Of a stretch of 64,000 nt of DNA, positions 27,246 to 54,554 are shown in pieces. This DNA comes from an uncultured Nitrososphaerota archaeon (GTDB lineage: Archaea; Thermoproteota; Nitrososphaeria; Nitrososphaerales; CADDZS01), in the NCBI GenBank assembly GCA_963799845.1, contig CAWCYI010000004.1, positions 1,920,001-1,984,000 on the forward strand, written 5' to 3'. Each line of letters begins with the position of its first letter. The stretch's first letter is position 1. The notes under the pieces are model-generated. The model had not been told where the DNA came from, ran no database searches, and saw only the letters and a program-made list of their open reading frames with translations. The position numbers and the translations under genes are program-made.

Positions 27246-27297
27246 CTAGTAAATCCCGAGTGCGAGATGTGGGATTTGAAACCAATTTACTGGTAAA
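27246..27297 (-). repeat. palindrome/TCCCAC repeat, copy R1
   Basis: reverse complement: TTTACCAGTAAA-TTGGTTTCAAA-TCCCAC-ATCTCGCAC-TCGGGA-TTTACTAG. Confidence 0.9.
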
Positions 27298-27385
27298 CTG
27301 CACAACTCACATCAAGTTACTTCTGGTTCTCTGGGGAGTGGTGGGGATATAGGGTCGTTGGATTTCGACATACGATACAAAAATG

Positions 27386-28003
27386 CTATTCCAGCGGAGC
27401 CGAGAGATAATGAGTAATCGTAACAACAGTCCAGCGAGCGATATCATCTGGGGATCCATCCGTTATTCCGGGTAGCCTCAGCACGTAACGACTGAGACCA
27501 AGACCAAGTAGTGTAGACGCGATTAGGGCAACTCTTCGGTTCGCAAACCGAGGCCCCGATCGTGCTGTAATCTGCGGTGTTATTTGTTGCTCGATCGTGG
27601 AGCGGAGAGCTTCGGCTGCCTTTTCGTTAGTAAGGGCAGATCGCAACAATCCTGAAAAAGCCATTGAAGTTCCGGGATTCTCCCACCGAGCCAAGAACAG
27701 TTTGACGATCGCTCGCGCCGCCTTGGAGGGATCTTTGATTGTGGTCAGCGGAGCGGTCTCGGGGGAACGCATCATCCGGCTCAGCGTTTCGCGGAAGAGT
27801 CTTGCCTTGTTCCCGAAGTAATGATATGTCAGTGCCGGGTTGGTACCTGCTCTAGTAGCAATAGCGCGCATAGACGCCCCATCGAAACCAAGTAGTCCGA
27901 ACTCGAAGAGTGCCGCCCGTAGAATGTCATCTCGCGGACTACCCCACGCTTTTGGCCGTCGACCTCTTCTTGGTCGTCTTTCTGGTGAACCAGGCTCAGC
28001 CAG
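27386..28003 (-). CDS. TetR/AcrR-family regulator
   Basis: RDDILRAALFEFGLLGFDGASMRAIATRAGTNPALTYHYFGNK; the HTH requires extension to the CTG at 28003. Confidence 0.9.
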   Translation of the reverse strand: MAEPGSPERRPRRGRRPKAWGSPRDDILRAALFEFGLLGFDGASMRAIATRAGTNPALTYHYFGNKARLFRETLSRMMRSPETAPLTTIKDPSKAARAIVKLFLARWENPGTSMAFSGLLRSALTNEKAAEALRSTIEQQITPQITARSGPRFANRRVALIASTLLGLGLSRYVLRLPGITDGSPDDIARWTVVTITHYLSAPLE

Positions 28004-28023
28004 TTAGGTCACAGCTCAATTAA

Positions 28024-28039
28024 TTAAACACATGTTTAA
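28024..28039. promoter_or_regulatory. putative TetR operator
   Basis: TTAAACA-CA-TGTTTAA between divergent genes. Confidence 0.6.
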
Positions 28040-28053
28040 ATATTTGCCTAGGG

Positions 28054-28557
28054 TTGCTGCAGGTAAATCGAATAATGATATCAGAGTGGAATCTTTCGCT
28101 TTTTCTCGCAGCCTCGGGAATCAACGGACTACTTGCCGGAACGAGCATAACTAAATCAGTCGTTGAGTTGCCCGCTGGCAAGAAAATAGGATCTCTTGCC
28201 TTCGCTGCCTACAGTCGGGCTGCTGACCTAAAAAACGGCTTGCTTTGGTACTCTTTCCTTGGTATTATCGGTCCTGTTCTGACCGTAACAGCTACCATCA
28301 TGACAAACATTGGATATGGTCCATCTGGAGACTTTTCGATTGCTCTGGACGTTGCGGCTGTACTCTCAGTCGCACATGTTGGATCGACGGCTCTGGCCGC
28401 TCCCAATATGATGAAGGTAAGTCGTGCTGGCAATGAGATTGCGCAATTGGAGGTTCTCTATGCTCGATTCCGACGATGGAACGGTTTGAGAGCCCTCTTG
28501 CAGGGCCTCACATTTCTCGTCTGTCTCGTCGCAATATATGAGCTGATAATCGGGTAG
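28054..28557 (+). CDS. 4-TM membrane protein (DUF1772-like)
   Basis: hydrophobic helices; RFRRWNGLRALL C-terminal pattern. Confidence 0.6.
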   Translation: MLQVNRIMISEWNLSLFLAASGINGLLAGTSITKSVVELPAGKKIGSLAFAAYSRAADLKNGLLWYSFLGIIGPVLTVTATIMTNIGYGPSGDFSIALDVAAVLSVAHVGSTALAAPNMMKVSRAGNEIAQLEVLYARFRRWNGLRALLQGLTFLVCLVAIYELIIG

Positions 28558-30023: not shown

Positions 30024-30418
30024 ATCCTTGAAAGTTCTCTTGCTATAAGTAATAGAAAATGATCCAAGAATAAATGTCATTCTAGTTGACGGCGCATAGC
30101 ACATCTTTTTCCGTTACTAATCTTCGACCCTGATGATTCTAGACGGAATCTATGTCTTCTCGCAACAATTCTCTCATCGCCCGTTCGATGATTTTAGATC
30201 CATTCTTTCTCTTGCTTCTCCTTGTCTCCCCTGCGGCCGGCTTTGTCACTACGGTTGCGACCTATGGGTTCAGCTTGAACGTGGGGCTGGGATCTTTCAA
30301 CATGCTACCCATCCCGCCGATTGATGGATACAAAATTTTCAAGAACAACATTGATCTGGACCCCATCTTTTAGACACACTTTTGACTCGTTTGACTGCAT
30401 ATTATTTTGTGTCATCTT

Positions 30419-31249
30419 CTATTTCACTACTATCTGGGAGACGAATTCGTACGGACTCATGTAACCGAGTGCCGAGTGAGGTCTCCTCTCGTTGTAATCT
30501 ATGAAGGCTTCTGCTATGTGTGAATCAGCTTCCTGGAAGGATCTAAAATCGTACGGCCAAACATATTCACGCTTGAATCGTCCGTGGAACGATTCAATTG
30601 ATCCATTCTGCTCGGGAGTGTTGTAGGCGATGTATCTTTGCTTAATGCCTAAAGCTTTCATCGACTGCTTGAATGTCTCGCTGATGTACTGGGATCCGTT
30701 GTCGCTGTAGAGAGTCACTTTTCCAGAAGCTTCGGGATGCTTCTCGAGAGCTTTTACGACAGCCTGTACTGCATTCTCCTTACGTGCAAAACCATCAAAG
30801 ACATACGCAAGCCATTCTCTTGAAAACACGTCGATGACGTTGAAGAGATATCCAAAGCCATCTATTCCGCAGCGGATGTATGTGAGATCGGTCTGCCATG
30901 ACTGATTTATTCCATTGGGTTTCGGGATCTTATCCGAGACAGATTTCAGTACCTCATTCCTCGTCAATCGAGGTGTGATCCAGCCCATCATGCGGTAGGC
31001 GTGCTGCACTTGCTTTCTATTGATGGGTCTTCGAAGTTCTTTTGATAGAAGAGCTGCCATCATCCTAGTTCCGTACATAGGCTTCTTTAGAGCAATGTCC
31101 CTGACTGTCGAGATGATGGACGGATCGCGGAGAGCTCCTTTATCCTGCCTTGTGTGACGCTTGTAGTAATACGCTCCCTGCGAAGACCCAACGGACCGGA
31201 GAGCTTTCCTCAAGCTCAATCCTTTGTTAACCATTATTGCGACGCTCAT
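30419..31249 (-). CDS. IS3 transposase OrfB (DDE)
   Basis: WQTDLTYI, SDNGSQY, NGSIESFH, RPHSALGY. Confidence 0.93.
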   Translation of the reverse strand: MSVAIMVNKGLSLRKALRSVGSSQGAYYYKRHTRQDKGALRDPSIISTVRDIALKKPMYGTRMMAALLSKELRRPINRKQVQHAYRMMGWITPRLTRNEVLKSVSDKIPKPNGINQSWQTDLTYIRCGIDGFGYLFNVIDVFSREWLAYVFDGFARKENAVQAVVKALEKHPEASGKVTLYSDNGSQYISETFKQSMKALGIKQRYIAYNTPEQNGSIESFHGRFKREYVWPYDFRSFQEADSHIAEAFIDYNERRPHSALGYMSPYEFVSQIVVK

Positions 31250-31539
31250 TTTTTCCCCGATCCCTGCAGTACCTGCTTCATTGCGTCGTTTGCGATTGTT
31301 AGTTCTCCAATGAGCTTCTTCAATCGCTCCACCTCTGCCTCCTTCTCCTTCCCCGGATCCTTCAGACCTCCAGTGAGGGCAAGCTTTCCACCGTGAATGA
31401 ATTTCTCCCTCCACTGGTAGAATGTCCCTGGAGTGAGGTTGTACTTCCTGCAGAGCTCGGACATGGAGATGTTGGTGTTCAAAGATTCAAGGACTATCCT
31501 GATCTTGTCATCAGGACTCCACCTCGAGTTTCTTGGCAT
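31246..31539 (-). CDS. IS3 transposase OrfA (HTH)
   Basis: WSPDDKIRIVLE..LCRKY..YQW; GGGGAAAAAA slippery run overlapping an ATGA junction. Confidence 0.9.
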   Translation of the reverse strand: MPRNSRWSPDDKIRIVLESLNTNISMSELCRKYNLTPGTFYQWREKFIHGGKLALTGGLKDPGKEKEAEVERLKKLIGELTIANDAMKQVLQGSGKK

Positions 31540-31830
31540 GCTTCTATCTTGGACCTCCACTGCTTGCAGTAAAAGGTTCTCCATATTGGGGTGTGTCTAA
31601 TGTGCGTGGGTCCTCACCAACATCCTAATCGCCCTGGCAATTGCCCTTCCGCTTTGGGCGATGTTCGTTTTCTTTTTCATCGGAGTGTAAAGCAAGTTGA
31701 CCAACTAGGACTCAGCAAAGTGTAACGCTGAACGCTTTTAGCCAGCATCGGCACATCTCTCCGCTTGCTTGTTTAGCCCGCTACATCTTGGTGTCCCAAT
31801 TCATACTCCTGACAGATTGAGCTGGAAACT

Positions 31831-32265: not shown

Positions 32266-32501
32266 TCCTCTCATCAACTCACAAATCAAATCTGGTTTCC
32301 TCCTAACCAGTTCAAGACATTACCCTAGATTAAATGGAACTAAAGAAGTAAAATCATAATAATTCTAATTCTGATTTCCTCGAAATCTCTTTCGAGAACT
32401 CCGCCGAGATCAAGAAATATTCCAAAGTTTCCAAGTGCTTCAGCAAAGGTTCGATGCTGAACCACGTCCAATCAATGCTATCTTGGCATCACACGTATGA
32501 A

Positions 32502-32635
32502 TTTACGTAAATCCCGAGTGCCGAGATGTGGGACCCTCGCACGAATTTACTAGTAAAAGTGCCACTGCGTCTGTAAATCCGAAAATCGAGAACAGAGGGT
32601 CAGAACCAAGATTCGGACACGAATTTGCTAGTAAG
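32502..32635 (-). repeat. palindrome/TCCCAC repeat, copy R2 (three palindromes)
   Basis: reverse complement: CTTACTAGCAAATTCGTGTCCGAATC ... TTTACTAGTAAA-TTCGTGCGAGGG-TCCCAC-ATCTCGGCAC-TCGGGA-TTTACGTAAA. Confidence 0.92.
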
Positions 32636-33410: not shown

Positions 33411-33412
33411 TT

Positions 33413-34605: not shown

Positions 34606-34613
34606 CTTACTAG
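34606..34613 (+). repeat. left part of repeat R3 (CTTACTAG), split by IS110
   Basis: joining it to 37753 restores CTTACTAGTAAATACGTGTCCGAATC, matching R2 and R5. Confidence 0.88.
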
Positions 34614-34935
34614 GTGACATGATCGACCGTATTAAAGGAACGTAAAGCCACAGCCAAGCACATGTACGCAGCAATAGACTTGCACCAAAAAACTGTACAG
34701 TCAGTACTCAAGGATGAAGGGGGAAGGATAGAAAACGAGCTGAAGATCAACAAGGATGCAAAAAGCATACTCGAATTTCTTGATGGTACTGATGCTGAAA
34801 TAGTCATGGAGTCTGGTTACAACCACGAACACATCTATGATCTTCTAAAGGAGGAAGGATACGATGTCAAGGTAGCTCATCCATTGATGGTTAAGGCGAT
34901 CGCATACGCAAAAGTGAAAAATGACAAGGTAGACG

Positions 34936-36883
34936 GCGCGCCAAGGAATCTCTATGACTCGTGGACGTAAGTTCCACTCTGGGAATCGCAGGTTTGCCCA
35001 GATAGATTGGGGCACAGCTAGCGGAGCAATTCGCTGGCTGGAGCTGTCCTCAAATCAAATCCTCAGGCCGCAGCGCAAGCGAACTCGATGTAGCACCGTG
35101 AGGTCGGAGTGGGAAGGCCTAGCAAGTCGTCACTCTGCGAAGGCTAGAACTGCATCATCAGGTGTAATGCCTGTAGCCTGCGAGCATGCAGCTTCCCCGG
35201 TGTTGCAGGGGTGGCATGAGGAGAAAGCCATGGAGCCTAACTTGGGAGACCGGGTAGTGTCCATAGATGCTCTAACAACTAGGGCATCTTTGGTAGTGCT
35301 GCCTATAAGCTCGTTGAGCGAAATGGCGGCCGAAGCGCTGCACGGAGTCGGAAAGGCTAGTAGTATTCATGAGGGTGAGGACAGCACAACCTCGCACGAG
35401 AGAAGGAGCCTTACTTGTGTGCGTGACTGCTCAAAGTTCATGGACGAGTCCATTCTTCGCAAGAAGTAAGAGGTTGAAAGCTCGTAATTTGAAGCCCGTC
35501 GAAGAACTTCGTAGCAGTCTTTACCGAACAGCTGAAGGAGAACAAGGAAAGGAGATTCTACAGTCTAAAAGATAAAATCTGTCGGATCGATGTTTTGGAA
35601 GAAGCTTGGAAAAGAGTCAGAGCAAACAAAGGTGTGGAAGGAATCGACAACGAGACAATCGAGGACATAGAAAGGAGAGGAGTTGATGAATTCCTCTCGC
35701 GGCTACAGCAAGAACTCAAGGACGAAACATACAAAGTTCAGTGCGTCAGGAGAGTTTTCATTCCCAAACCGAATGGGAAGAAAAGACCTCTTGGTATCCC
35801 AACTGTAAGGGACAGGGTAGTTCAACAGGCGGTCAGATTAATCATCGAGCCGATATTCGAAGCTGATTTCCAAGATTTCAGCTACGGATACAGATCGCAC
35901 AGGTCGGCAAGAGATGCAAGCTTGGCAATCTACAGGTGCCTAAACTTCGGTCTTACGAACGTCATCGATGTTGACATCGAAGCGTTCTTCGACCACATAG
36001 ACCATTCAAAACTAATCTCCTTTGTCAAGGAGCGAGTCACAGACGGATACATCATCAAACTCGTCAGGGAATGGCTCAGGGCAGGCGTCGTCTACATGGG
36101 TGAAACGACTTATCCGAATGAGGGGACTCCTCAGGGTGGAGTCATCTCGCCTCTTCTAGCCAACATCTATCTCAACAAACTCGACGCAGCATGGACGGAG
36201 CTGAAGATGAACAGCAGATACAAGTACAATTCTCAGCTCGTTAGATACGCCGATGACATTGTAATCTTCACAGACAGGAGTTATGCAGGAAACATCATGA
36301 GGTTTCTCTCGGAATTTCTTTCCTCATATCTTGGACTCGAGCTGCGCGAGGACAAATCCAGAATCACTACAGCAAAGGAAGGATTTGATTTCCTTGGATT
36401 TCACTTCTTGAGAAGATTTGAGTTCAGGAAGGGGAAGGAAGTAACCAGATTCTTCCCGTCCAAAGCTACCGTGCGAAAGTTCAGGGACAAGGTTAGGGAG
36501 CTAACTGCAAGGGGTGTCACTCACGTCAAGGATGAAAGGCAGCTAGCCAAGGAACTGAACTTGCTCATTGTAGGATGGACTAACTACTTCAACCACTCTA
36601 ATGCCTCAGAAACATACGGAGACTTGCAGCACTACGTCGAATGGAAGTTCAGGCAATTCATACGCTTCAAACATCAGATTCGCAGATTGTCAGCCAGATA
36701 TGATGGCTTCGATCAGCCCTCTCAATTTGGCTTGAAATCTCTAGCGGGTAGAATCTCGTACGTAACTTGGGAGCCGTACGCTCTTCGGTGAAGCACCTCG
36801 GTAAGCTGTGTGAGGGAAAACTTCACGCACAGTTTGATGTGGGAGGGGGAGGATTGAAAACAAAATCCTCTCTTTCACCCAAC
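34936..36883 (+). mobile_element. group II intron
   Basis: 5' GCGCG; domain V AAGCTGTGTGAGGGAAAACTTCACGCACAGTTT (36803-36835); domain VI hairpin with bulged A ending ACCCAAC; removal restores the recombinase frame exactly. Confidence 0.95.
35595..36791 (+). CDS. ltrA: group II intron reverse transcriptase/maturase (no endonuclease domain)
   Basis: RPLGIPTVRDRVVQ, GTPQGGVISPLLANIYL, RYADD, GFDFLGF, GWTNYF; natural N-terminus (EELRSSLYRTA/KENKERRFYSL) is offset by one base near 35534. Confidence 0.93.
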   Translation: MEEAWKRVRANKGVEGIDNETIEDIERRGVDEFLSRLQQELKDETYKVQCVRRVFIPKPNGKKRPLGIPTVRDRVVQQAVRLIIEPIFEADFQDFSYGYRSHRSARDASLAIYRCLNFGLTNVIDVDIEAFFDHIDHSKLISFVKERVTDGYIIKLVREWLRAGVVYMGETTYPNEGTPQGGVISPLLANIYLNKLDAAWTELKMNSRYKYNSQLVRYADDIVIFTDRSYAGNIMRFLSEFLSSYLGLELREDKSRITTAKEGFDFLGFHFLRRFEFRKGKEVTRFFPSKATVRKFRDKVRELTARGVTHVKDERQLAKELNLLIVGWTNYFNHSNASETYGDLQHYVEWKFRQFIRFKHQIRRLSARYDGFDQPSQFGLKSLAGRISYVTWEPYALR

Positions 36884-37594
36884 CAAGGACACTTGCAGAT
36901 CTACTGAGACTGGACATGATACCGGAGTGCTACATCCCCAGCCAAGAGATAAGAGAAGTAAGAGACCTGGCAAGGAGGAGACATTATTTCGTCTCGACAA
37001 GAACGATGTTCAAAAACAAAATCCATGCAGAGCTCAGCAGGAGATGGATTGATTACAGTAAAGATCTCTTCACGCAGACTGGGATGGACCATCTAAAATC
37101 GCTTCATATCGCAGCGGTAAATGACTACCTCGACTCAATTCAGTTCCTCGATGAGAAGATACGAGAGCTTGACGGCCAAATCAAGGAAAAGCTCTTGGCG
37201 ACAAATATGCGAAGCTCCTTGTGACGGTGCCAGGAATATCCTACTACGGTGCGCTGCTGATTTCAAGCGAGATTGCAGACATCAACAGATTCCCAGACCC
37301 AGAACACCTGTGCTCCTATGCAAAACTGGCACCCGGAACTCATCAATCGGGAGAGACACAATACCAGAAAGCAGATCGTAACAAGGGCAATCACATGCTC
37401 AACTGGATATTGATCCAGTGTGCTCACATACACGTCCTAAACTGCAACTCGTCGATTACTGGGCATTACAACAGGATCAAGGAAACGAGGGGAAACAAGA
37501 TCGCCATCGTCGCAGCAGCAAGAAAACTGACGTGCGCAATCTACATGATGCTGAAGGAAGAAAGAGCCTTCAGGCTGGACGGCTAAAACCATAA

Positions 37595-37741
37595 ACTGGG
37601 CTCGAGAATTTACTGCATCTTCAGGATGCGTTTACTAGGATGAGCCAAAGGCAATAAGCGAAAGCCACAATGCTCTTTTGGAGCGAATGGGAGTATGCTC
37701 GTCCAGCATGACAAAAGAGATATTAAGAAATGTAGCCCAGT
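37595..37741 (+). ncRNA. predicted bridge/seek RNA of the IS110
   Basis: two stem-internal loop-stem modules; loop 1 carries GAATTTACT and TTTACTAG (target), loop 2 carries ATGGGAG (donor end); ends ACTGGGCT/AGCCCAGT are complementary. Confidence 0.8.
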
Positions 37742-37750
37742 CGACATGGG

Positions 37751-37879
37751 AGTAAATACGTGTCCGAATCTCGTTACATGACCGAGCTATCATCTTGAAA
37801 ATTTGGAAATAGGGGTTGTATTTTTACTAGTAAATTCGTGCGGGGGTCCCACAACTCGCACTCGGGATTTACTAGTAAA
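37751..37879 (+). repeat. palindrome/TCCCAC repeat, copy R3 (right part)
   Basis: AGTAAATACGTG ... TTTACTAGTAAA(37823)-TTCGTGCGGGGG-TCCCAC-AACTCGCAC-TCGGGA-TTTACTAGTAAA(37868). Confidence 0.93.
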
Positions 37880-38017
37880 AACTGAAGCCAAATGCTCAAA
37901 CTTACACAGCAGCTCCCATAACGTTAGCGCGTTCATTTGCTGGCACAATTTACTGGCATCTCGAGGCTCAATTTAACCAATAAATACCTTGAACATGCGT
38001 GAACGACGAGTGCGAAC

Positions 38018-38392: not shown

Positions 38393-38507
38393 GTTGTTCC
38401 AAGTAATGCGAGACACCTGCGAGCGCACTTGATCTATCTCATCCTGAAACGCCCTAATCCTGCCACTCTTACTGTAGTCTTCTAGACCCAAACGGAAGGA
38501 GGTCTGA

Positions 38508-38963
38508 TTGATAGTGCAGAAACCCCGGCTCAAGCTGCCTCGCGAGCTTCGCTCACTAGAGAAGCTCATTGGGAATTGGGGTGTTACGATTCGATGGTCC
38601 GAAGAGACACACAAACTGGTCGGTGGACCAAAAGAAGTGAAAGCTGAAGCAAAGATTTCCCTGATGAAAGAAGGAGGTTTTCTCCATTATCAGATGGGAC
38701 CCTCGCACTGGATAATCGGGAGAGATGAAAGCGCTCCAGAGTTTGCTGTTCTCTATAGCGATGAACGTCTGATTGCACGCGTATATCGAATGAGTTTCAC
38801 TCATGGGGTCTGGAAGCTTTGGAGAGATGCGCCCAAATTTCACCAGCGATTTGAGGGACACCTCAGATCTAATAAACGAAGAATAGATGCTTACTGGGAC
38901 AAATCAGAAGATGGGAAGTCCTGGATTCGCGACTTCGACATGATCTTTGTTCGTTCTGACTAA
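38508..38963 (+). CDS. hypothetical beta-barrel protein (DUF1579-like)
   Basis: LEKLIGNW, LYSDER..RVYRM, QRFEG, WDKSEDGKSW..DF. Confidence 0.65.
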   Translation: MIVQKPRLKLPRELRSLEKLIGNWGVTIRWSEETHKLVGGPKEVKAEAKISLMKEGGFLHYQMGPSHWIIGRDESAPEFAVLYSDERLIARVYRMSFTHGVWKLWRDAPKFHQRFEGHLRSNKRRIDAYWDKSEDGKSWIRDFDMIFVRSD

Positions 38964-39001
38964 TGCCTGGAATCCTTAGATTTGCAAAAAAAAGAAAAAT
39001 C

Positions 39002-40403: not shown

Positions 40404-40508
40404 GGAAAGTTCAATGGAGAATCTTGGCCAAATAGCTTTCGGCCGATTACTTCAAAACGCTAAATGGATACGAAAAATCAATTCTGGGAGAGATGAAGGA
40501 AAGAGAAC

Positions 40509-40982: not shown

Positions 40983-41011
40983 ACACTCGGGCGTTAATTT
41001 TTACTAGTAAA
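40983..41011 (+). repeat. partial repeat copy R4
   Basis: CACTCGGG..TTTACTAGTAAA (41000-41011); one-mismatch TTTACTACTAAA also at 41192-41203. Confidence 0.65.
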
Positions 41012-42378: not shown

Positions 42379-42422
42379 TCTATCTTCTGTCAGGCTTCAA
42401 CATCCGGAATATGATATCCGGA

Positions 42423-42989
42423 TCAGGATAGCTCTCGCTTCAGCTTCCCTGGATCGGAGTACGCCATTCTTTTCCATAGTCCTTCAATGCAAGCCATGAC
42501 TGCTTCTAGCAATTGATCTGGATTATCCTTTGCAATCTCTCCAGTTTTCTGCCCCTCGACTATCAGCCGCCGCATTTCGTTTAGAAAGATCTTACCATGC
42601 CTTGTCATCCTTTCTTTAAGCTCAGCAGGTAGCGAATCATCAGCTAGTATCTGATAGAGAAATTGGTAGTATCCTGACTGTTCTCTTCTTCGTTCTATTA
42701 GTCTAGTTACAATAGTGTGGAGTTTCTCTACCGGAGTTCCAGGTAGCTTTTTCATCATCTTATCATATTCTTCTGCAGATTGTAGTGAATGTTTCAGCAG
42801 GGTTTTGAAAATCTCATCCTTGCTTTCGAAGTATCTGTAGGCAAGCCCTTGGCTGATTCCAGCTTCTGATGCAATGTCCGCCATGGTAGCCGAACTACCT
42901 TTTCGCCCGAATACCTTCTCGGCGGATTTCAGAATATTCTCGGGTTGATCTATTCCCAATCGTTCAATTGATGTTTGAGGCCTAGTCAT
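42423..42989 (-). CDS. TetR/AcrR-family regulator
   Basis: ATMADIASEAGISQGLAYRYFESKDEI. Confidence 0.9.
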   Translation of the reverse strand: MTRPQTSIERLGIDQPENILKSAEKVFGRKGSSATMADIASEAGISQGLAYRYFESKDEIFKTLLKHSLQSAEEYDKMMKKLPGTPVEKLHTIVTRLIERRREQSGYYQFLYQILADDSLPAELKERMTRHGKIFLNEMRRLIVEGQKTGEIAKDNPDQLLEAVMACIEGLWKRMAYSDPGKLKRELS

Positions 42990-43025: not shown

Positions 43026-43065
43026 CATATAAAGATTGATTCGAGTCGAGCCCAGAAATTCAAAT

Positions 43066-43215
43066 TTTACTAGTAAATTCGTGCGCGAATCCGTTACCTA
43101 ACCGAGCTATCATCTTGAAGAGTTACAATAGGGCTTGGATTTTTACTAGTAAATTGGTGCGGGGGTCCCACATTCCGCGCTTGGAATTATCTGTCGGTTG
43201 GTTTTTACTAGTAAA
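43066..43215 (+). repeat. palindrome/TCCCAC repeat, copy R5 (three perfect palindromes)
   Basis: TTTACTAGTAAA at 43066, 43142 and 43204; shares ACCGAGCTATCATCTTGAA with R3; GTGCGGGGG-TCCCAC core. Confidence 0.93.
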
Positions 43216-44488: not shown

Positions 44489-45066
44489 GATTTGCGATCA
44501 TATTCTCCTATTAGCAAGACGTGTTTTCCTCTCATCTACATATAACAGGGGACATAATTCTCAAAAATGAGAACGGCATTTCCGGGGCACCCACTAAAGT
44601 AATGATTGTTCTTCCGCGCAATGAAATCGATCACATTCGGGATTGATAAGAAATCATCTGAGTTTCGTTCTGTTAAGATTCATCGGATTTTTTCGGTAGA
44701 TTTATCAATTTTCGGCCTGTCAGGGTGCGTACTGCGACTACTACGACTATTACAATTACAGTAAGTACAACGATTAAGATGATTCTACTTTGGGGAATCG
44801 TCGTCAACTCACATTCTCCTATCTAACAGAACATATATTGATCAAAAATTGTATTCTAAAAAGAAGTTCTAAACGTACAAATTCTGTACCTTTGTGGACA
44901 ACGTAGAATCCAATAAATTCGTGCCAATTATGCCCTAATTTTACTTCTAAGGCGAGAATCAATCGAATTTACCCGACTCTTTGTCGACTAGCTTTTAATC
45001 AAAAACTGGAAAAGAGCCTGCGGTGGAAGCCGCATAGAGTCTGAGAAAAAGGCCGAGCGTCGTCGT

Positions 45067-46863
45067 GTGGAGCGCTTTCTCAATCGCAGTTATCTTGGAA
45101 AATGGGCCTTCATCGGTACGCTTATCGGACTCGTAGCGGGTTTTGGTGCTACAGTATTTTACTTTGCGATCCAAATAGTCTCCAACACGATGTTAGGCGG
45201 GATAACGGGGTTTTATCCTCCCAATCCCGTGGGAGAAGCGCCGGCTCCTATTTCAGTAAACCCGCATTTCTTGCTTATTCCAATTTCAACGGCTATCGGT
45301 GGATTGATCGCAGGGCTGCTAGTTTTTGGTTTGGCGCCCGAAGCGGAAGGGCATGGAACCGATGCTGCAATTGATGCATATCACAATAAGGGCGGTATCA
45401 TTCGGCGACGTGTTCCGATCATAAAGACGATTGCGTCAGCGTTCACAATAGGCAGTGGGGGAAGTGCGGGAAGGGAGGGCCCTACCGCGCAGATTGCTGC
45501 TGGCTTTGGTTCGATGATCGGAGAGATTTTTGGATTATCTGCTAAGGACAGGAGGATCGCTCTAGCTGCGGGAATTGGGGCAGGCATCGGATCGATTTTC
45601 AAATCTCCGTTTGGCGGAGCGATACTGAGTGCGGAAATTCTGTACAGCGGCGGCGACATCGAGGCAGAAACTTTGATTCCAGCTTTCATCGCAACCCCGA
45701 TAGGTTACGTCATTTTTGGGTCATTCACCGGATTCACTCCGATATTCGGGACTGGAATTACATACAATTTTACTCATCCTTTCAACCTGATTTTCTACGC
45801 GATACTCGGTGTACTTTGCGCAGGAGTGGGAAGGTTCTACACTTTGACCTTCTACACCGTCAAAAATTTTTTTGATGTGTCGAAGATTCCGAAGTACGTA
45901 AGACCGATGATCGGTGCAGCAATTTGCGGAATAATTGGAATTTTCTTTCCAGAGGTAATCGGGTTGGGTTACGGATTTTTGCAATTTGCTATTGACGGGA
46001 ACTTTAGTTCGATTACAACCAACTACGTTGCATTACCAGTCATCCTCGTTTTGCTGCTCGTCGTATTCTTGAAAATTTTTGCTACTTCTTTCACGGTGGG
46101 TTCTGGAGGAAGTGGAGGAGTGTTCGCTCCCTCTCTCGCAATTGGGGGATTCCTAGGCGCAGCTATGTGGATGGTTGTTCAGAATTTCTTTCCGAATCTT
46201 ATTCCAATCCCAGCTCCTCTTGTCATCGTCGGAATGATGGCTCTCTTTGCAGGAGTAGGCCGAGTTCCCATCGCCGTAATTCTAATGGTCAGCGAAATGA
46301 CAGGTAACCTATCGCTGCTGGCTCCTTCGATGATTGCAGTTGTGACCTCATACTATTTGACTGGCTCAAAATACACCATTTATCACAGCCAGGTCGAGAC
46401 GAGGGCGGACTCACCCGCACACATGGGAGAGTACAATGTTCCGCTGATGACTAGGATATTTGTTTCCGAGGCTATGAACAAGGATGTACAGAGTCTGAAC
46501 GAAGATGATTCTGTTCAAAGAGCTAATCAGCTGATTCTTGAAAAAGGCTTCAAGGGAATTCCTATAGTATCCAAAGAAGGGAAAGTTACGGGCATGGTCA
46601 CGCTGAAAGATGTGGAACGCATCCCAAGAGAAAAATCTGCTTCAACAAAACTTGCAGAAATAATGACTCAAAACGTCATATCGGTCGGACAGAACGAAAC
46701 ACTCCTTGATGCTATGAGGAAAATGACGATAAATGAAGTGGGTCAGCTTCCCGTTGTCGACAAATCGACTGGAGCACTTTTAGGAATAATAAGCCGGACC
46801 GATCTTTTGCGAGCTTACGATAAAAGAATCTCCGTCGATGATGAATCGACTGCTCGTAAATGA
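45067..46863 (+). CDS. clc: CLC chloride channel or Cl-/H+ antiporter with CBS pair
   Basis: GHG, GREGP, GGVFAP motifs; two C-terminal CBS domains. Confidence 0.93.
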   Translation: MERFLNRSYLGKWAFIGTLIGLVAGFGATVFYFAIQIVSNTMLGGITGFYPPNPVGEAPAPISVNPHFLLIPISTAIGGLIAGLLVFGLAPEAEGHGTDAAIDAYHNKGGIIRRRVPIIKTIASAFTIGSGGSAGREGPTAQIAAGFGSMIGEIFGLSAKDRRIALAAGIGAGIGSIFKSPFGGAILSAEILYSGGDIEAETLIPAFIATPIGYVIFGSFTGFTPIFGTGITYNFTHPFNLIFYAILGVLCAGVGRFYTLTFYTVKNFFDVSKIPKYVRPMIGAAICGIIGIFFPEVIGLGYGFLQFAIDGNFSSITTNYVALPVILVLLLVVFLKIFATSFTVGSGGSGGVFAPSLAIGGFLGAAMWMVVQNFFPNLIPIPAPLVIVGMMALFAGVGRVPIAVILMVSEMTGNLSLLAPSMIAVVTSYYLTGSKYTIYHSQVETRADSPAHMGEYNVPLMTRIFVSEAMNKDVQSLNEDDSVQRANQLILEKGFKGIPIVSKEGKVTGMVTLKDVERIPREKSASTKLAEIMTQNVISVGQNETLLDAMRKMTINEVGQLPVVDKSTGALLGIISRTDLLRAYDKRISVDDESTARK

Positions 46864-46979
46864 GATTAAAATGGCAACATGCTGGAGGGCTGATGTCAAC
46901 TTGCGAACCTTATGATTCCGTCCGAGCTCGGGGATACGGTTTTGAATAATAGAAACTAGCAGGTCGTACAGAAGCCAAC

Positions 46980-49487
46980 TTGGGTAGTATCACTCCTTCC
47001 GAGGGGAAGGATCTTCCTGTCGCAGAACTGCTCAAGAGACTTGCAACGACCGAAAAGGGGCTCTCCTCTTCAGAAGCAGTCAAAAGGCTCCAGCAATATG
47101 GAGCGAACGAGATAGTTGAAAAGAAGCGCTCCGCGATACTCATTTTCCTACGCTATTTTTGGGGACCCATTCCCTGGATGATAGAAGCGGCAGCGATCAT
47201 CTCGGCATTCTTGCAGAACTGGGACGACCTAGTTATCATCACCGCGCTCTTGGTGGTAAATGTCATTGTTAGGACGTGGCAGGAGAACAAGGCCAGCAAT
47301 GCAATCGAGCTGCTGAAACAGAGGCTTGCCCTTAGGGCGAAAGTACTGCGGGATGGAAAGTGGGCTGATCTTCCTGCAAAAGAGCTCGTTCCCGGAGATA
47401 TAGTACGTCTACGCCTCGGGAATATTGTTCCCGCAGACACAAAGCTTGTTGACGGTACATATCTTCAGATCGACGAATCAGCTTTAACCGGAGAATCTCT
47501 GCCCGTGGAGAAGCATCCGGGCGATGTTGCCTTCTCATCCTCTATTGTTCGACAGGGTGAGATGAACGCTCTTGTGGTTACGACGGGGATGAACACCTAC
47601 TTTGGACGGACCACCAAGCTGGTTGAGGAAGCTCAAACAAAAAGCCATTTCCAAGGAGCGGTGGTGAAGATCGGTGACTATCTTATCGCGCTTGCCGCAG
47701 TCATGGTAACGATAACGTCAATCGTCGGTCTCATCCGTCAGCAGGGACCTCTCGAAATCCTTCAGTTCGGACTCGTCCTGATCATTGCAGCAATCCCGGC
47801 GGCGATGCCGGCCGTCCTCTCTGTTTGCATGACGGTGGGAGCATCGGCATTAGCGAAGAAAGATGCCATAGTCAGCAAGCTGGTTGCCATAGACGAGATG
47901 GCGGGCGTGGATATTCTATGCGCGGACAAGACAGGCACTATCACGAAGAACGCGCTTACTGTAAGCGAAACGAAGACCTTCAAAAAATATACGGAAAACG
48001 ATATCCTGCTTTTTGCAACCCTTGCCTCAAGGGAGGAAGACAACGATCCTATCGACGACACGATCATAATGAAAGCCAAGAGATTGAACGAGATGCCCGC
48101 GTCGATAGCAAGTTACAAAGTTTCGTCCTTCAAGCCGTTCGACCCCGTGTCAAAACGAACGGAGGCCACGGTGGAAGGCAAAGACGGCAATGTCTTTCAG
48201 ATTACAAAGGGAGCACCCCAAGTGGTTTTGTCTCTCGTCCATGACAAAGACATCGAGGGAGTCGTGAACGAGGATGTCAACAGCTTCGCCGAGAAGGGAT
48301 ATCGCGCCCTAGGTGTGGCAAGAACCGACGGCGAGAAGAACTGGCAATTTGTCGGGCTTATAGCGCTCTCCGATCCCCCGCGGGAAGATTCGGCCGCCAC
48401 GATAAAGACTGCACAATCGATGGGAATAGATGTGAAAATGGTCACAGGCGACCACATGGCCATAGCCAAGGAAGTCTCACAGCAAGTGGGGCTGGGAACA
48501 AATATTGTCACATCGTCGTCTATCCTAGACAAATCAGACAGTGAAGCAGAATCAGTGGTAGAGAAAGCCGATGGTTTCGCGGAGGTTTTTCCAGAGCACA
48601 AGTATCGCATCGTCGACCTTCTGCAGAAGAAAGGGCACATCGTCTGCATGACCGGGGACGGCGTCAACGATGCTCCCGCCCTAAAGAAGGCTGATTGCGG
48701 GATAGCAGTGGCCGGGGCTACTGACGCTGCAAAGTCTGCCGCTGCCGTAGTCTTGACGAAGCCCGGTCTCTCCGTGATCATCGATGCCGTGACGGGGAGT
48801 CGGGAGATATTCCAGCGAATGACTAACTATACGATCTATCGCATTAACGAAACATTCCGGGTACTATTCTTCATTTCACTTTCAATCATCGTGTTCAAGC
48901 TCTACCCGGTCACTGCGTTGATGATTGTTCTACTTGCTCTCCTCAACGACATGCCTATCATGACGATAGCCTATGACAATGTCAAGATCTCCCAAAAGCC
49001 AGAGAAGTGGAACATGCGTACATTGTTGGGAATCTCATCATTTCTGGGAATTATCGGGACAGCATCGTCCTTCGGAATGCTCATTATCGGGCTTGAAGTT
49101 CTGCACTTGAATCCGCTGGTTCTCCAGTCGTTCATATATCTCAAGCTGTCCGTGGCGGGGCACCTTGCGCTGTTTGTGGCTCGGACAAAGGGACCATTTT
49201 GGTCTGTGAAACCTTCAAGATCGTTGCTCCTCGCTGTCATATTGACTCAGCTGACGGCGACACTGATCACAGTTTATGGCATTCTTTTGCCCGCCATGGG
49301 GTGGGAGCTATCAGCAATTGTCTGGGGATACGCATTGGCATTCTTTTTTGTTCAAGATTTCCTCAAGGTTCGATTCTACAAGTTACTTAATCACGAAGGA
49401 GGATTCTTTCAAATGAAGAAAATTGAATTACAATTGAGTTCTCAGCTTATGGGAATTCATTTCTTTCTGAGGAATTTCTTCAGATGA
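46980..49487 (+). CDS. P-type IIIA plasma-membrane H+-exporting ATPase
   Basis: FWGPIPWMIE, TGES, DKTGT, PFDPVSKRT, KGAP, GDGVNDAPALKKAD, LLND. Confidence 0.95.
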   Translation: MGSITPSEGKDLPVAELLKRLATTEKGLSSSEAVKRLQQYGANEIVEKKRSAILIFLRYFWGPIPWMIEAAAIISAFLQNWDDLVIITALLVVNVIVRTWQENKASNAIELLKQRLALRAKVLRDGKWADLPAKELVPGDIVRLRLGNIVPADTKLVDGTYLQIDESALTGESLPVEKHPGDVAFSSSIVRQGEMNALVVTTGMNTYFGRTTKLVEEAQTKSHFQGAVVKIGDYLIALAAVMVTITSIVGLIRQQGPLEILQFGLVLIIAAIPAAMPAVLSVCMTVGASALAKKDAIVSKLVAIDEMAGVDILCADKTGTITKNALTVSETKTFKKYTENDILLFATLASREEDNDPIDDTIIMKAKRLNEMPASIASYKVSSFKPFDPVSKRTEATVEGKDGNVFQITKGAPQVVLSLVHDKDIEGVVNEDVNSFAEKGYRALGVARTDGEKNWQFVGLIALSDPPREDSAATIKTAQSMGIDVKMVTGDHMAIAKEVSQQVGLGTNIVTSSSILDKSDSEAESVVEKADGFAEVFPEHKYRIVDLLQKKGHIVCMTGDGVNDAPALKKADCGIAVAGATDAAKSAAAVVLTKPGLSVIIDAVTGSREIFQRMTNYTIYRINETFRVLFFISLSIIVFKLYPVTALMIVLLALLNDMPIMTIAYDNVKISQKPEKWNMRTLLGISSFLGIIGTASSFGMLIIGLEVLHLNPLVLQSFIYLKLSVAGHLALFVARTKGPFWSVKPSRSLLLAVILTQLTATLITVYGILLPAMGWELSAIVWGYALAFFFVQDFLKVRFYKLLNHEGGFFQMKKIELQLSSQLMGIHFFLRNFFR

Positions 49488-50837: not shown

Positions 50838-51637
50838 TTAAAGAACAGGTCACGAGTACCGAAGCTGCAGACTCAGCTTGGGGAGAGCTTTACGAAATCG
50901 GCGGATATGCCGCCCTAATGGCTCTCGCGGTCGTATTGATCGAGGGTCTCATAGTCGTTATCATCCAAGATGTCTGGTTGCATTCGGGGCAGTTCGGCGC
51001 GAGTTTCGGTGACCAACCCAGCACAGTAATTGGGTGGTTCGAGCTGTTTCAGAGTAATCGACTCATCGGACTCCTCGACGATGCTATCCTGGACATTGCC
51101 GTTGTCGCCCTACTGGGCCCGGTGTTTCTTGCCCTCTTTGCCGCGCTGAGGCGAACCAATCAATCTTGGATGGTAGTCGCAACACCCCTTGCGTTCGCAG
51201 GCATAGCAGCTTACGTAGCAACTAATACGAGCCTCTCTTTACTTTACGTCAGCGACCAATATGCAGCTGCAACAACGGAGGCACAGAAGTCTCTCCTGCT
51301 TGCAGCTGGTCAGGCGACAATTGCTGTGGGCGGGGGCGGCCTGTTTTGGAGTACAGGATTCATTTTAGTGGCGGTTGCGGGACTGATCGTCGCAGCAGTC
51401 ATGCGCAGAGGCAAGCTCTTCGGCATAGCAACCGCTTGGGTGGGAATCCTCGCAAATGGATTATTTCTAGTCAATTACATCGCCTCCGTCTTTGTGTCAG
51501 CTACATCCAATGTGTCAACAATCCTCGTCGGTTGTGCCACGATTTTGATGTTCGTCTGGTGGATCCTGATTGCGAGAAAGTTATTCCAGCTTGGGCGAAA
51601 CGCCCCGATGGTAACCGAAACAGATCCAAGAATTTAG
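50834..51637 (+). CDS. multi-pass membrane protein (DUF4386-like)
   Basis: about 6 TMs; SDQYAAATTEAQKSLLLAAGQA. Confidence 0.7.
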   Translation: MIKEQVTSTEAADSAWGELYEIGGYAALMALAVVLIEGLIVVIIQDVWLHSGQFGASFGDQPSTVIGWFELFQSNRLIGLLDDAILDIAVVALLGPVFLALFAALRRTNQSWMVVATPLAFAGIAAYVATNTSLSLLYVSDQYAAATTEAQKSLLLAAGQATIAVGGGGLFWSTGFILVAVAGLIVAAVMRRGKLFGIATAWVGILANGLFLVNYIASVFVSATSNVSTILVGCATILMFVWWILIARKLFQLGRNAPMVTETDPRI

Positions 51638-51719
51638 AACGTGCGCCAGTCCCTATCAGGGGGATTTCCGCTTCCTAACCGACATGGAACGTGAAGTCCA
51701 TTTCTTGTTTCACTTGTAT

Positions 51720-51767
51720 TATGCTAGTAAATTCGTGCGGGGTCTCCATCTCGCACTCGGGATTTAC
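51720..51767 (+). repeat. degenerate repeat copy R6
   Basis: TATGCTAGTAAA-TTCGTGCGGGG-TCTCC-ATCTCGCAC-TCGGGA-TTTAC. Confidence 0.85.
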
Positions 51768-52090: not shown

Positions 52091-52459
52091 TCATTTGCAA
52101 AATCCAGAAGGAAGAGCACGGGCACAAACCCACGTCAAGTACCATGCCCACACCTCACCATTCCTATAAGCCGTCGCTGAAACAATCATGATGAAGGCCC
52201 CGAGGCCCGCGCTGAAGATCGCAAGGATCGTGATTAGATAGTAAATGTAATTGGCTACACCTGGACTCGACACGGCTAGCTGAGAAAATGGGGCGCCAGT
52301 CAGGGTCTCGACGGCATTTTCCGCGCCAGTGAGGATTCCAGGAGATAGGATTGTGGCGGACATGGAGAGCAGGAAGAATAGACCCATCACGAATGGAATT
52401 ATCCACGCATACTTTTCATACGCTTTCTCCCTTCGAATTACAGCCATGAAACTTAGCAA
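52091..52459 (-). pseudogene. membrane protein, probably frameshifted near the 3' end
   Basis: YRNGEVWAWY after the TMs; hydrophobic continuation downstream in another frame. Confidence 0.5.
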
Positions 52460-52491
52460 CTGATGATCGTTATTTTATCCTTTGGCAAGAT

Positions 52492-53037
52492 TTGCCGCGA
52501 CAAAGGGACTGCTTAAAGCCGAGAGCCATTAGCTTCGTAGTAATGCCAAGTGAAGGAATAGAATCCATCAACGAAGAGAACGCGCATTTGGTTGTACCCA
52601 AAATAAAAATGGGTGCGATATGTCAGATTGGAATCGTTGTCAGGGATTTGCAAAAGGCGGTGGACAATTATTGGGAGAAATTGGGAATCGGCCCTTGGAT
52701 GACAGTCAGAATCGAGCCACCGCTCCTCAGGGATGTGAGCTTGCGGGGGAAACCCGTTGAGGCCTCAATGATGGCGGCAATTGCACAGAGTGGTAGCATC
52801 CAGCTGGAACTGATACAGCCCCTTGAAGGCCCAAACATCTGGAAGGAGTTCCTGGAGGAACGGGGTGGGGGCCTCCATCACGTCCAGTCGCTTGATCAGG
52901 ACGCTAATGCGGCGCTCGCCACGTTTAGAGAAATGGGAGTCGACGTGCTCATGAGTGGCAGGATTGGTGACAACATATTCTACTACATGGATACTGAGCC
53001 GCTTCTGGGAACCATCTATGAGTTCATAGGACACTGA
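52492..53037 (+). CDS. VOC-family (methylmalonyl-CoA epimerase-like) protein
   Basis: QIGIVVRDL, ELIQP, FLEERGGGLHHV. Confidence 0.88.
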   Translation: MPRQRDCLKPRAISFVVMPSEGIESINEENAHLVVPKIKMGAICQIGIVVRDLQKAVDNYWEKLGIGPWMTVRIEPPLLRDVSLRGKPVEASMMAAIAQSGSIQLELIQPLEGPNIWKEFLEERGGGLHHVQSLDQDANAALATFREMGVDVLMSGRIGDNIFYYMDTEPLLGTIYEFIGH

Positions 53038-53174
53038 TTTGCGAGGGTTATGATCGAATCTAGGGCGACTCGCATGTAACCTAGAATACGCCAAGATCTT
53101 TTGGGGTAACAAAGGCCTATCTCCATTAAGGAGAGCTTCCTAGAGGTATGCGGGTTTGCCAACGGGGTTGCATT

Positions 53175-53212
53175 TTTACTAGTAAATTCGTGCGGGGGTC
53201 CCACCCTCCGCA
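53175..53212 (+). repeat. repeat copy R7, putative att junction of the integrated element
   Basis: TTTACTAGTAAA-TTCGTGCGGGGG-TCCCAC-CCTCCGCA; right half differs from the other copies and resembles a tRNA-Leu 3' end; 61 bp before the integrase. Confidence 0.8.
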
Positions 53213-53273
53213 TCTATATACATGCTGAGGACAGCAAATATTATCAATTCATAACGCTTGGCTCTGCAACGAT

Positions 53274-54554
53274 TTGTCAAAGCCATCAGAAAAGCTACGT
53301 GGAAAATCGCTGAGGCCGTACTTGGCGAGCTTCAAGAGTGAGCAAACAAAGGAAAGCTACTGCGGCAAGCTGCGCCTATTCTTGGAAAAAAGCGACCTGG
53401 AATTGGATGAGCTTGTTGAACTTGCGAGATCGCAGCCGAGCAAAGTAGAGGATCTCTTTTTCGATTTCATTGAGACTCGGAAGAAAGAGGGAGTCGGTGG
53501 ATCTACGATTCATATGGCGAGGGACGCTGTGAAACTTCTTCTCGAAATGAATGACATTGAAAAGGTGAACTGGAAGAAAATCGACCGCTTGATTCCACGC
53601 GCAAGAAGGCATGGCTCAGACAGGCCGCCCAGCTCCGAGGAGATCCGAAGGCTTCTGCTTCACGCGGACCTGAAAATGAAGTGCATTATTTTGCTGCTTG
53701 TCAGCTCCGGCATCAGGATCGGCGCACTAGAGTATCTTACCTGGGGCGATCTGGAACCGATCAAAGCGGCGGGATTTCAATTTGCCAAGCTGAGGGTGTA
53801 CTCGGGTGAGCCAGAGGAATACACAACCTTTGTGTCGCCAGAGTGCCATGAAGCTCTCCTAGAATACAGAAAGGCACGAGAAGATGTGGGCGAAAAGATC
53901 ACCAGGAAAAGTCCTCTTATCTCGATTCAACTTAATGAGAGAAAGATTGCAGAGGGCGCACCCGCAACTGCGAGAGTGGTCAAGTCCAGAGTAATCGCCA
54001 ACAAACTTGGACTTTTGTGGAAAGAAATGGGGCTGAGAGAAACTGTCGTCGGGGAAGGAAAAGCCATCAGGCAAAAAGCCATCAGGCACGAGTTCAAGCA
54101 AGCTCATGGTTTTCGCAAATTCTTCAAAGTCGAATGTGAGCGATTTACAAAATCTCTTTTCGTGGAGATATTCATGGGACATGCGACCGGAGTTACGGCA
54201 AGTTACATGAAGCCGCCAATCGAGAACATGATCGAGGAATATGTGAAAGCCATTCCTGGGATCACGATAATGACGAGTCGTGAAATCAAAAGCGAGCGCG
54301 AAATGAGAATGACGTTTCTTTTGCTAAGCGGCAAGTTCACGAAACAAGAAATCGAAGAAAAGCGCTTCGCCGATCTTCCTTACCTAGAACTTCAAAAGGT
54401 GATGGTAGAACGTCTCGAAGATGAAAAGGAGAAAGCTAGTAAGAGTAAGGGGCAGATCGTAGTACCCGTGAGCGAGGTTAAGAATTATCTTGCACAGGGA
54501 TACGACTTGATCGCCCCTTTAGGAAATGGAGAAGCCGTTCTCAAACCCATCTGA
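53274..54554 (+). CDS. int: tyrosine recombinase/integrase
   Basis: SSGIRIGAL (R), HGFRKFF (HxxR), MGH, ASY (Y). Confidence 0.93.
   Translation: MSKPSEKLRGKSLRPYLASFKSEQTKESYCGKLRLFLEKSDLELDELVELARSQPSKVEDLFFDFIETRKKEGVGGSTIHMARDAVKLLLEMNDIEKVNWKKIDRLIPRARRHGSDRPPSSEEIRRLLLHADLKMKCIILLLVSSGIRIGALEYLTWGDLEPIKAAGFQFAKLRVYSGEPEEYTTFVSPECHEALLEYRKAREDVGEKITRKSPLISIQLNERKIAEGAPATARVVKSRVIANKLGLLWKEMGLRETVVGEGKAIRQKAIRHEFKQAHGFRKFFKVECERFTKSLFVEIFMGHATGVTASYMKPPIENMIEEYVKAIPGITIMTSREIKSEREMRMTFLLLSGKFTKQEIEEKRFADLPYLELQKVMVERLEDEKEKASKSKGQIVVPVSEVKNYLAQGYDLIAPLGNGEAVLKPI

Follow-up and report, generated by a model that had tools for sequence, protein, structure and literature searches.

Integration at tRNA genes and the accretion of mobile elements are textbook phenomena. 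In streptococci, cis-mobilizable elements that lack an integrase and are bounded by attachment (att) sites accrete beside an integrative element at one site, and the pdif sites of Acinetobacter plasmids measure 28 bp (11-6-11) and alternate in orientation. In Thaumarchaeota, according to the main text of PMC6563490, elements integrate at the 3' ends of tRNA genes by means of tyrosine integrases, the att sites have a median length of 17 bp (minimum 8 bp), one site may be used repeatedly in tandem, and elements may be as small as 2.6 kb. We describe here a family of repeat units, built on a constant 12-bp palindrome (TTTACTAGTAAA, hereafter P) followed by sequence resembling a tRNA 3' end, which separate accessory genes in a 64,000-nucleotide stretch of the genome of an uncultured Nitrososphaerota archaeon (C4:1920001-1984000, hereafter the window; positions without a contig name refer to it). 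The genome comprises 4.6 Mb in 9 contigs and is 87% complete, and the window stretch is represented in soil and peat metagenome runs. We see roughly an even chance that the units are lineage-specific att sites, derived from tRNA 3' ends and used by tRNA-targeting integrases, which mark hot spots of accretion and exchange. A literature search retrieved no published family of dispersed, conserved pseudo-tRNA sites ordering small accessory modules, supplementary tables lying outside that search.

The window resembles the thaumarchaeal integrated elements in having an integrase of the same broad kind beside a tRNA-type site, and an element on contig C8 of the same genome measures ~3.2 kb. However, the site here is mostly a dispersed pseudo-tRNA unit with a conserved palindrome rather than a tRNA gene, and a single genome has 55 such loci, arranged in oriented arrays at intervals of about one gene and mostly without an integrase nearby. 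As in integrons and attC arrays (PMC9668308), hairpin sites of ~57 nt, imperfectly palindromic and in the same orientation, accompany small accessory genes and mostly lack an integrase, and the spacing used to recognize integrons, at least two same-orientation sites less than 4 kb apart, is also found (19/33 gaps). Unlike integrons, these arrays show no IntI signature and no R''/R' boxes, their sites derive from tRNA ends, and gene direction is mixed. Streptococcal accretion offers a parallel in its integrase-less, att-bounded blocks beside an integrase-bearing element, but the known cases are bacterial and involve a small number of large blocks at a single tRNA or gene end, whereas dozens of dispersed pseudo-sites occur here. 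Short multi-copy intergenic hairpins are also typical of repetitive extragenic palindromes (REPs) and bacterial interspersed mosaic elements (BIMEs), of miniature inverted-repeat transposable elements (MITEs) and of IS110/IS1111 targets (PMC11187229 and PMC11208160), and an IS110-family element does lie at one fixed position in P. In contrast to REPs, BIMEs and MITEs, the clusters are uniformly oriented and tRNA-like, and no target duplication was seen and no partner of the REP-associated tyrosine transposase (RAYT) type was found. The term MITE does not occur in the main text of PMC6563490. Small accessory modules bounded by recombinase sites recall pdif modules, although neither the 28-bp geometry nor the alternation is seen here.

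The repeat unit and its copies

The repeats are real and exceed chance. P occurs eight times exactly in the window and ten times with at most one mismatch, compared with an average of 0.06, and never more than 2, in shuffles, and 40 exact copies are present genome-wide. Copies were located with an nhmmer profile seeded with 12 complete copies (E<0.01). The 66 matches in the genome correspond to 61 copies once weaker opposite-strand overlaps are dropped and to 55 loci once copies at most 250 nt apart are merged; they are spread over contigs C3-C8 and are clustered in islands on C4, C6 and C7. Seven matches fall in the window, at 27246-27297(-), 32501-32559(-), 37819-37882(+), 43063-43092(+), 43139-43188(+), 51722-51767(+) and 53172-53213(+). 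The profile found no unit in positions 1-27245 or beyond 53213, and a further unit lies 630 bp outside the window start (C4:1919305-1919371, minus strand).

The basic unit consists of P followed by ~27 nt that mimic the T-arm and the 3' strand of the acceptor stem of a tRNA. Among the 45 typed units, the left-hand core is of type 1 (GTGCGGGGGTCCC) in 18, of type 2 (GGTTCAAATCCC) in 17 and of the G-type (GTGYSCGAATCCC) in 10, and all core types run on into CTCGCA-like ends. Types 2 and G resemble the T-arm and acceptor 3' strand of this genome's real tRNAs, and one G-type copy is identical to the final 17 bases of tRNA-Gly(CCC). At least 19 of 22 positions are identical to a tRNA 3' end of the same genome in 19 of the 61 P-adjacent cores, whereas the best of 400 random 27-mers reached at most 15. 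Three continuations were found 3' of the core: TCGGGA with a second P 45 nt from the first; an insert, GGAATTAT, with P at 62 nt; or unrelated sequence. P stands at both ends of complete units (6 exact cases in the genome; class i accounts for 17 of the 45 typed units). Large composites of ~135 nt, in the order P, G-type core, linker, P, type-1 core and P, were seen six times, and conservation is limited to ~60-135 nt, the neighbouring genes being unrelated.

A second P at 45 or 62 nt, which many units possess, allows a hairpin of 57-74 nt. The full P-core-P unit, 57 nt long, is imperfectly palindromic, with a bulge of 3 nt and a terminal loop, and the single-stranded DNA fold of the hairpin at 37823-37879 has a free energy of -13.5 kcal/mol (z = -5.5). 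In the many units lacking a second P this long hairpin is impossible. The inner stem is paired in 87.6% of cells, and its covariation did not exceed that of shuffles. The copies in the window are as follows.

27246-27297, minus strand: type-2 unit; P (one mismatch), T-arm-like core, TCGGGA and truncated P; nhmmer 46 bits; core identical to tRNA-Leu(CAG) at 19/22 positions
32501-32633, minus strand: two-unit composite; type-1 unit at 32501-32559 and G-type (tRNA-Gly-like) unit with degenerate P at ~32600-32633; nhmmer 55 bits; 76-79% identical to the composites C7:22188-22310 and C6:1747338-1747467
34606-34613, plus strand: left half of a split P; GC joined to TTACTAG, with identity to other copies of the inserted IS110-family element from 34607
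37750-37879, plus strand: composite; right half of the split P (37750-37756), G-type core, ~36-nt linker and the P-core-P hairpin 37823-37879, with complete P at 37823 and 37868; nhmmer 75 bits
41000-41011, no strand assigned: solitary P with a weak remnant, CACTCGGG, in front of it; no nhmmer match at E<0.01
43066-43215, plus strand: three-P composite; P, G-type core, linker, P, type-1 core, 17-nt insert and P, with P starting at 43066, 43142 and 43204; 83% identical to 37751-37869
51720-51767, plus strand: unit with degenerate P; type-1-like core, TCGGGA and TTTAC, where similarity ends; nhmmer 35 bits
53175-53213, plus strand: unit without a second P; P and type-1 core with a complete tRNA-like acceptor end; nhmmer 37.5 bits

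An earlier note, made from the window alone, had described at least seven palindromic copies, some with a third palindrome upstream, absent from the first 27 kb and from the DNA beyond the integrase gene, with the last copy close to that gene. The P counts and the profile matches bear this out, the third palindrome being seen in the three-P composite and in the half P plus two complete P of 37750-37879. The palindromes at 34606 and 37751, which it had counted as two copies, are instead the two parts of a single unit, interrupted by an IS110-family element with a group II intron, and its partial copy at 41000 survives as a solitary P and a weak remnant below the profile threshold. The GTGCG/CGCAC arms, which it had read as the core geometry of a tyrosine-recombinase site, form a 7-bp inverted repeat ~10-13 nt apart, not an 11-6-11 site. 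It was right that attC boxes are missing: no RYYYAAC/GTTRRRY R''/R' boxes were seen in the aligned copies, both unit ends being TTTACTAGTAAA. Genome-wide mapping, which it had called for, showed the motif to be clustered and intergenic, but not confined to the array in the window.

Fragments of tRNA 3' ends without P were also noticed, at C6:1113787, C6:1596102, C6:1641756, C6:1074361 (minus strand), C7:35415, C7:51949 and window ~27150-27240. Such fragments, for example copies of the C8 tRNA end, are often preceded by a GGAGGTAACAAATTGAACC-like motif, and the genome seems to be littered with att-type scars. In addition, two P-like half sites, ACTAGTAA ... TTACTAGT, make up a hairpin in the intron of a class II tRNA gene on the minus strand (C6:376385-376551), a gene that ARAGORN, when allowing introns, called as Leu (TAA).

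Arrays and homology breaks at the units

Neighbouring units no more than 10 kb apart have the same orientation in 29 of 31 pairs, and no composite is mixed. Within arrays, 18 of the 33 gaps are shorter than 2.3 kb and 19 shorter than 4 kb, a spacing of about one gene. Most copies (56/61) lie outside open reading frames (ORFs) of at least 100 aa, and 26 of the 61 lie between convergent genes, ~15 being expected. Genes run in either direction relative to the units, the upstream one being directed toward the site in 38/61. Accessory functions make up the contents of the arrays: dehydrogenase, amidohydrolase, methyltransferases, cyclases, DUF1801, NIPSNAP, TetR, chloride channel, P-type ATPase, flavodoxin and glyoxalase. 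GC skew is mostly below 0.01 in size, too weak to relate unit orientation to replication bias.

Paralogous tracts support the view that the units act as recombination junctions between gene modules. The integrase elements of C8 and C7 are 98% identical from AATCCCA (the tRNA T-loop) onward and unrelated before it. C4:1371607-1371990 and C7:21832-22215 are 99% identical over a gene end, P and the core as far as GAATCCCGT, after which two different linker variants follow. Window 51342-51767 is 88% identical to C6:900486-900918; the homology stops at the last base of the unit, and C6 has a type-2 core instead. A paralogue of one flank was identified for 30 of the 55 loci, both flanks being found together in the C7/C8 duplicate only. 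None of the modules at these 55 loci was seen to recur with a unit at each border, and the homology tracts reach a unit at one of their ends only. Target-site duplication was not visible in the unit flanks, and the 55 loci include no filled-versus-empty pair, that is, no locus with the flanks adjoining and the unit missing.

The internal organization of the units points in the same direction. In 21 type-1 copies from four genera and two families, P and the next 18 nt up to TCCCAC are at least 90% conserved per column, and the sequence is variable afterwards. Right-side classes i, ii and other are distributed 8:2:8 among type-1 cores and 8:3:6 among type-2 cores, and the left and right halves assort independently around TCCCAC.

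The C8/C7 similarity (C8:1-7821 versus C7:16621-8796) covers 7.8 kb at 98.4% identity up to the contig end, with the integrase intact on C8 and fragmented on C7. This stretch could reflect strain variation or alternative assembly instead of a genuine duplication.

Units were found by BLAST in 8 of the 12 other genomes of the family: 4/6 in the genus (counting G001 as a non-match), 4/5 in the sister genus and 0/1 in a third genus. The type-1 30-mer, with up to three mismatches, was present in 7 of 301 genomes of the order, namely the window's own genome (G000), 4/12 other genomes of the family and 2/15 in a second family, and it was not found in the three largest families sampled (0/74, 0/74 and 0/73). 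Multi-unit loci of relatives show the same orientation and lie ~1 kb apart. Between 40.5 and 56 kb, the window has only gene-sized pieces in common with same-genus genomes, and the C4:735 kb locus gave matches of only 64-70% with relatives. Relatives retain the sequence to the right of the C3 unit, but with no adjoining tRNA in the DNA retrieved. The relatives are very diverged, and their synteny (same-genus genomes, C3 and C4:735 kb loci) yielded no clean empty site.

The integrase and other mobile DNA

The right end of the array adjoins an integrase gene and the element that it appears to head.

53274-54554, plus strand: diverged tyrosine recombinase, 426 aa; NCBIfam XerA 5.5e-11, below the model's cut-off
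54555-64000, plus strand: integrated mobile-element body whose right end was not located; hypothetical ORFs, a ParB-N/DNA methylase fusion, a second methylase and a TFIIB-like gene (Pfam), all on the plus strand

Judged by its relatives and residues, the 53274 protein is a mobile-element integrase of a tRNA-targeting Nitrososphaerales family, and its gene is the first of a rightward element. An alignment of 24 homologues showed R148, H278, R281, H303 and Y311 to be invariant, so the catalytic R..H-x-x-R..H..Y is present. Pfam PF00589 gave an E value of 0.073 on this protein, but it is precomputed on many homologues. There are 514 homologues at E<=1e-5, several of them named as site-specific integrases of Nitrososphaerales, Nitrosopumilus, Nitrosotalea or Bathyarchaeia. 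The integrase profile matched archaeal XerA 5hxy at 1.2e-5 over the N-terminal half; phmmer with the single sequence against the PDB gave no match, and the profile alone did so. The integron-integrase model TIGR02249 (integrase_gron) scored 12.8 bits (E 0.054); its cut-off is 265 bits.

In two homologous loci, a tRNA gene ends ~70-100 bp 5' of the integrase (tRNA-His in L043 and tRNA-Val in L048; ARAGORN and Rfam). A tRNA was also recognized by eye in L044, L045 and L046, giving five of the seven upstream regions inspected. In the window, the unit at 53175 replaces the tRNA of relatives in front of the integrase and ends 60 nt 5' of the ORF (start 53274), at the attL/tRNA position. Scans for tRNA and Rfam families found no tRNA gene in the window and no Rfam family on the units, even at E<=10. 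ARAGORN called 9 tRNA genes in the genome without introns and 35 with introns allowed, the tRNA genes being intron-rich.

On C3, an integrase fragment lies 3' of tRNA-Ala(TGC) (C3:7873-7964), and a unit follows 22.8 kb downstream of this tRNA in the same orientation; the best match of its core is the same tRNA-Ala (20/22). On C8, the order is a tRNA-like gene (seen by eye but without an ARAGORN call), an intact integrase gene, two small ORFs and, 3.2 kb downstream, a unit, again in the same orientation. These units are candidate attR sites of the C3 and C8 elements, with 14/14 and 13/14 core bases shared (by eye). No such integrase is found near 52 of the 55 repeat loci, and the genome-contig collection contained two distant integrase loci, neither of them with a unit. 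A fluoride riboswitch (L032:3387-3473) near a distant integrase homologue in another archaeal metagenome-assembled genome is unrelated to the units.

The element body has a GC content of 0.50-0.52 and an AT skew of +0.13 to +0.23, compared with ~0.47 and ~0 to its left, a shift that, like its gene content, resembles that of an integrated mobile element. The TFIIB-like gene (window 61782-63221) has a long C-terminal extension and stands beside the two DNA methylase genes.

Further mobile elements have inserted within the array.

30348-31619, minus strand: IS3-family insertion sequence (IS); rve transposase 30419-31414 (Pfam rve, rve_3); copies 92-100% identical on C6 (two) and C2
34607-37756, plus strand: IS110-family IS inside P; 1202 bp without its intron; DEDD_Tnp_IS110 3.2e-19 and Transposase_20 8.4e-18 (Pfam)
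34936-36883, plus strand: group II intron inside the IS110 element; RF02003 51.4 bits and RF00029 48.1 bits, both above the gathering thresholds
38438-40685, minus strand: insertion relative to the paralogue at C6:1748 kb; holds an IS66-family element copy at 38975-40479

The IS110-family element inserts at the same point in 3/3 full copies, within P, with TTTACTAG on one side and AGTAAA on the other. The DEDD and Transposase_20 domains and the sequence-specific insertion that characterize the family are thus all present at 34607-37756. Without 34936-36883, the element matches C6:903701-904902 at 99-100% identity and C6:961379-962589 at 82-85%, and the transposase is divided over two frames in every copy read. 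The intron encodes a reverse transcriptase/maturase (ORF 35595-36791; Pfam RVT_1, GIIM) and is lacking in the otherwise identical IS110 copy on C6. Three layers of mobile DNA are therefore nested here: an intron in an IS110 element in a repeat unit. A long non-coding part lies 3' of the transposase in the IS110 element, and a 121-nt fragment is present at C1:164079-164198. The IS66 transposase (39010-40395) was identified by Pfam DDE_Tnp_IS66 (7e-34), and a contig joint at 38414>40686 agrees with the C6:1748 kb paralogue, which lacks the insertion.

A recent segmental duplication (94-97% identity) relates window 41285-42960 and 44976-49443 to C7:35761-42589 and carries a 371-aa gene, TetR, a chloride channel and a P-type ATPase. 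Between the duplicated parts, the window has 2 kb (units and DUF1254/DUF1214 genes) and C7 has 686 unrelated bp. A 1.13-kb element (C6:966840-967975 and others), presumably a very active insertion sequence, is present in ~20 copies of 99.9-100% identity, one of which ends 20-27 nt from a unit.

Proposed mechanism and rival explanations

If the units are att sites, Nitrososphaerales tyrosine integrases that normally act at tRNA gene 3' ends, or trans-acting relatives, would also use pseudo-tRNA units, with strand exchange in or beside the T-loop-derived TCCC(A/G) core. Successive rounds of integration, accretion and exchange would then produce same-orientation arrays with units between small accessory modules. 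The unit at 53175 would be the attachment site of the integrase-bearing element running rightward from 53214, and the array to its left would be older accreted material, later invaded by the IS3 and IS66 elements, the P-targeting IS110 element and the group II intron. We infer that the integrase recombines the units, where the crossover lies, and that P is bound by the recombinase or by an accessory factor. Most gaps within arrays are too small for self-sufficient elements, so mobilization in trans or another process must be assumed.

The exchange of modules by site-specific recombination, as the earlier note envisaged it, draws support from the homology breaks, the assortment of halves, the drop in conservation after TCCCAC and the position of the integrase where relatives have a tRNA; its platform of integron or pdif type did not stand. 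The array does not end at an integrase of its own, since this gene opens an element running to the right, belongs to a tRNA-targeting family and has no counterpart near most repeat loci. The synteny breaks that it had asked for were found in paralogous tracts ending in or at units, but on one side only, and relatives provided no clean empty sites.

Several observations weigh against a role as att sites. The 7-nt T-loop has been lost from the commonest core, type 1, which does not score as tRNA-like, and the Rfam tRNA model matched no unit even at E<=10. Breaks at the ends of shared segments are also expected from homologous recombination between repeats. Exact repeats, degenerate motifs and nhmmer --max revealed no attR of the window element, that is, no repeat of at least 12 nt and no unit in the next 90-100 kb. 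Of the genome's seven integrase-like loci, only three have a unit within a few kb. No unit was present in the fetched flanks of 10 other integrase loci (from this genome, relatives and the genome-contig collection; two from G001), or at any of 11 metagenome integrase loci. Gaps shorter than 2.3 kb cannot accommodate independent integrase-bearing elements. A same-genus genome, G004 (87% complete), has nine repeat matches and no integrase homologue at E<=1e-10. Four contig joints (37756>37832, 38414>40686, 42960>44976 and 44487>44664; on short contigs only) match paralogues or another organism, with no excision or variant junction among them, and three pattern scans of viral contigs found no unit, the sole match being an unrelated tandem repeat.

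It is possible, if somewhat unlikely, that the units are a selfish hairpin repeat of MITE or REP type and of tRNA-like origin, spread into intergenic DNA by some transposase, and that an integrase element mistook one copy for a tRNA; the homology breaks would then reflect ectopic homologous recombination between copies. P at both ends could serve as a terminal inverted repeat, and the stable fold of the long hairpin, the intergenic position of 56/61 copies at a spacing of about one gene, the many truncated and composite forms, the short conserved part (~60-135 nt) between unrelated genes and the presence of units in genomes without a detectable integrase homologue are all in keeping with such a repeat. 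The IS110-family element targets P much as such elements target REP-type repeats (PMC11187229). However, this explanation does not account for the uniform orientation of the arrays (29/31), conservation ends at TCCCAC and not at the far end, and neither a target-site duplication nor a filled-versus-empty pair was seen at the 55 loci. The parent element was not found; two IS200/IS605 copies (Y1_Tnp genes at C4:750843 and C6:729242), tried as parent of the repeat, have unrelated ends. A cis-element of the host, such as a transcription terminator, a processing signal or a small structured RNA selected at gene ends, would explain the excess of units between convergent genes (26/61 versus ~15), the hairpin potential and the strong conservation of the left half across two families. 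We regard it as highly improbable: orientation relative to the flanking genes is inconsistent, there is neither an Rfam match nor covariation, and the units, many of them truncated, are limited to variable islands.

An integron-analogous platform, in which single-gene cassettes with a P-core-P hairpin are moved as circles by a trans-acting tyrosine recombinase on folded single strands, seems to us unlikely or even quite unlikely. The site would suit such a system, being a 57-nt imperfect palindrome with a 3-nt bulge and terminal loop, as would the one-orientation arrays with 18/33 gaps below 2.3 kb, the accessory contents (dehydrogenase, amidohydrolase, methyltransferases, DUF1801, glyoxalase, flavodoxin) and the duplication of a gene together with its site (51342-51767/C6 and the C4/C7 pair). 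Arrays lacking an integrase would be the counterpart of clusters of attC sites lacking integron-integrases (CALINs), and the archaeal integrons on record are mostly arrays of this kind (PMC9668308). Nevertheless, no module occurs twice with both borders at units, gene direction is mixed (upstream gene toward the site in 38/61), the integrase bears no integron-integrase signature and has relatives located at tRNA genes, many units lack the second P and hence the long hairpin, and inner-stem covariation does not exceed that of shuffles. A true integron was rejected, given the integrase score of 12.8 versus 265 bits, the missing R boxes and the location of the integrase relatives at tRNA genes. 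Modules of the pdif/Xer type were likewise rejected: there is no 28-bp 11-6-11 site, and orientation is direct, not alternating.

If the units are MITEs, they are still unusual, being tRNA-derived and orientation-biased. We consider it unlikely, in our present estimation, that integron-like gene capture has been assembled here from different parts, with tRNA 3' ends and a palindrome as sites and trans-acting tRNA-targeting integrases as enzymes, and that it helped to inflate the genome to 4.6 Mb. If the units did recombine in trans, they would represent a second, independent invention of cassette capture and would provide a handle on gene gain in soil Nitrososphaerales with unusually large genomes.

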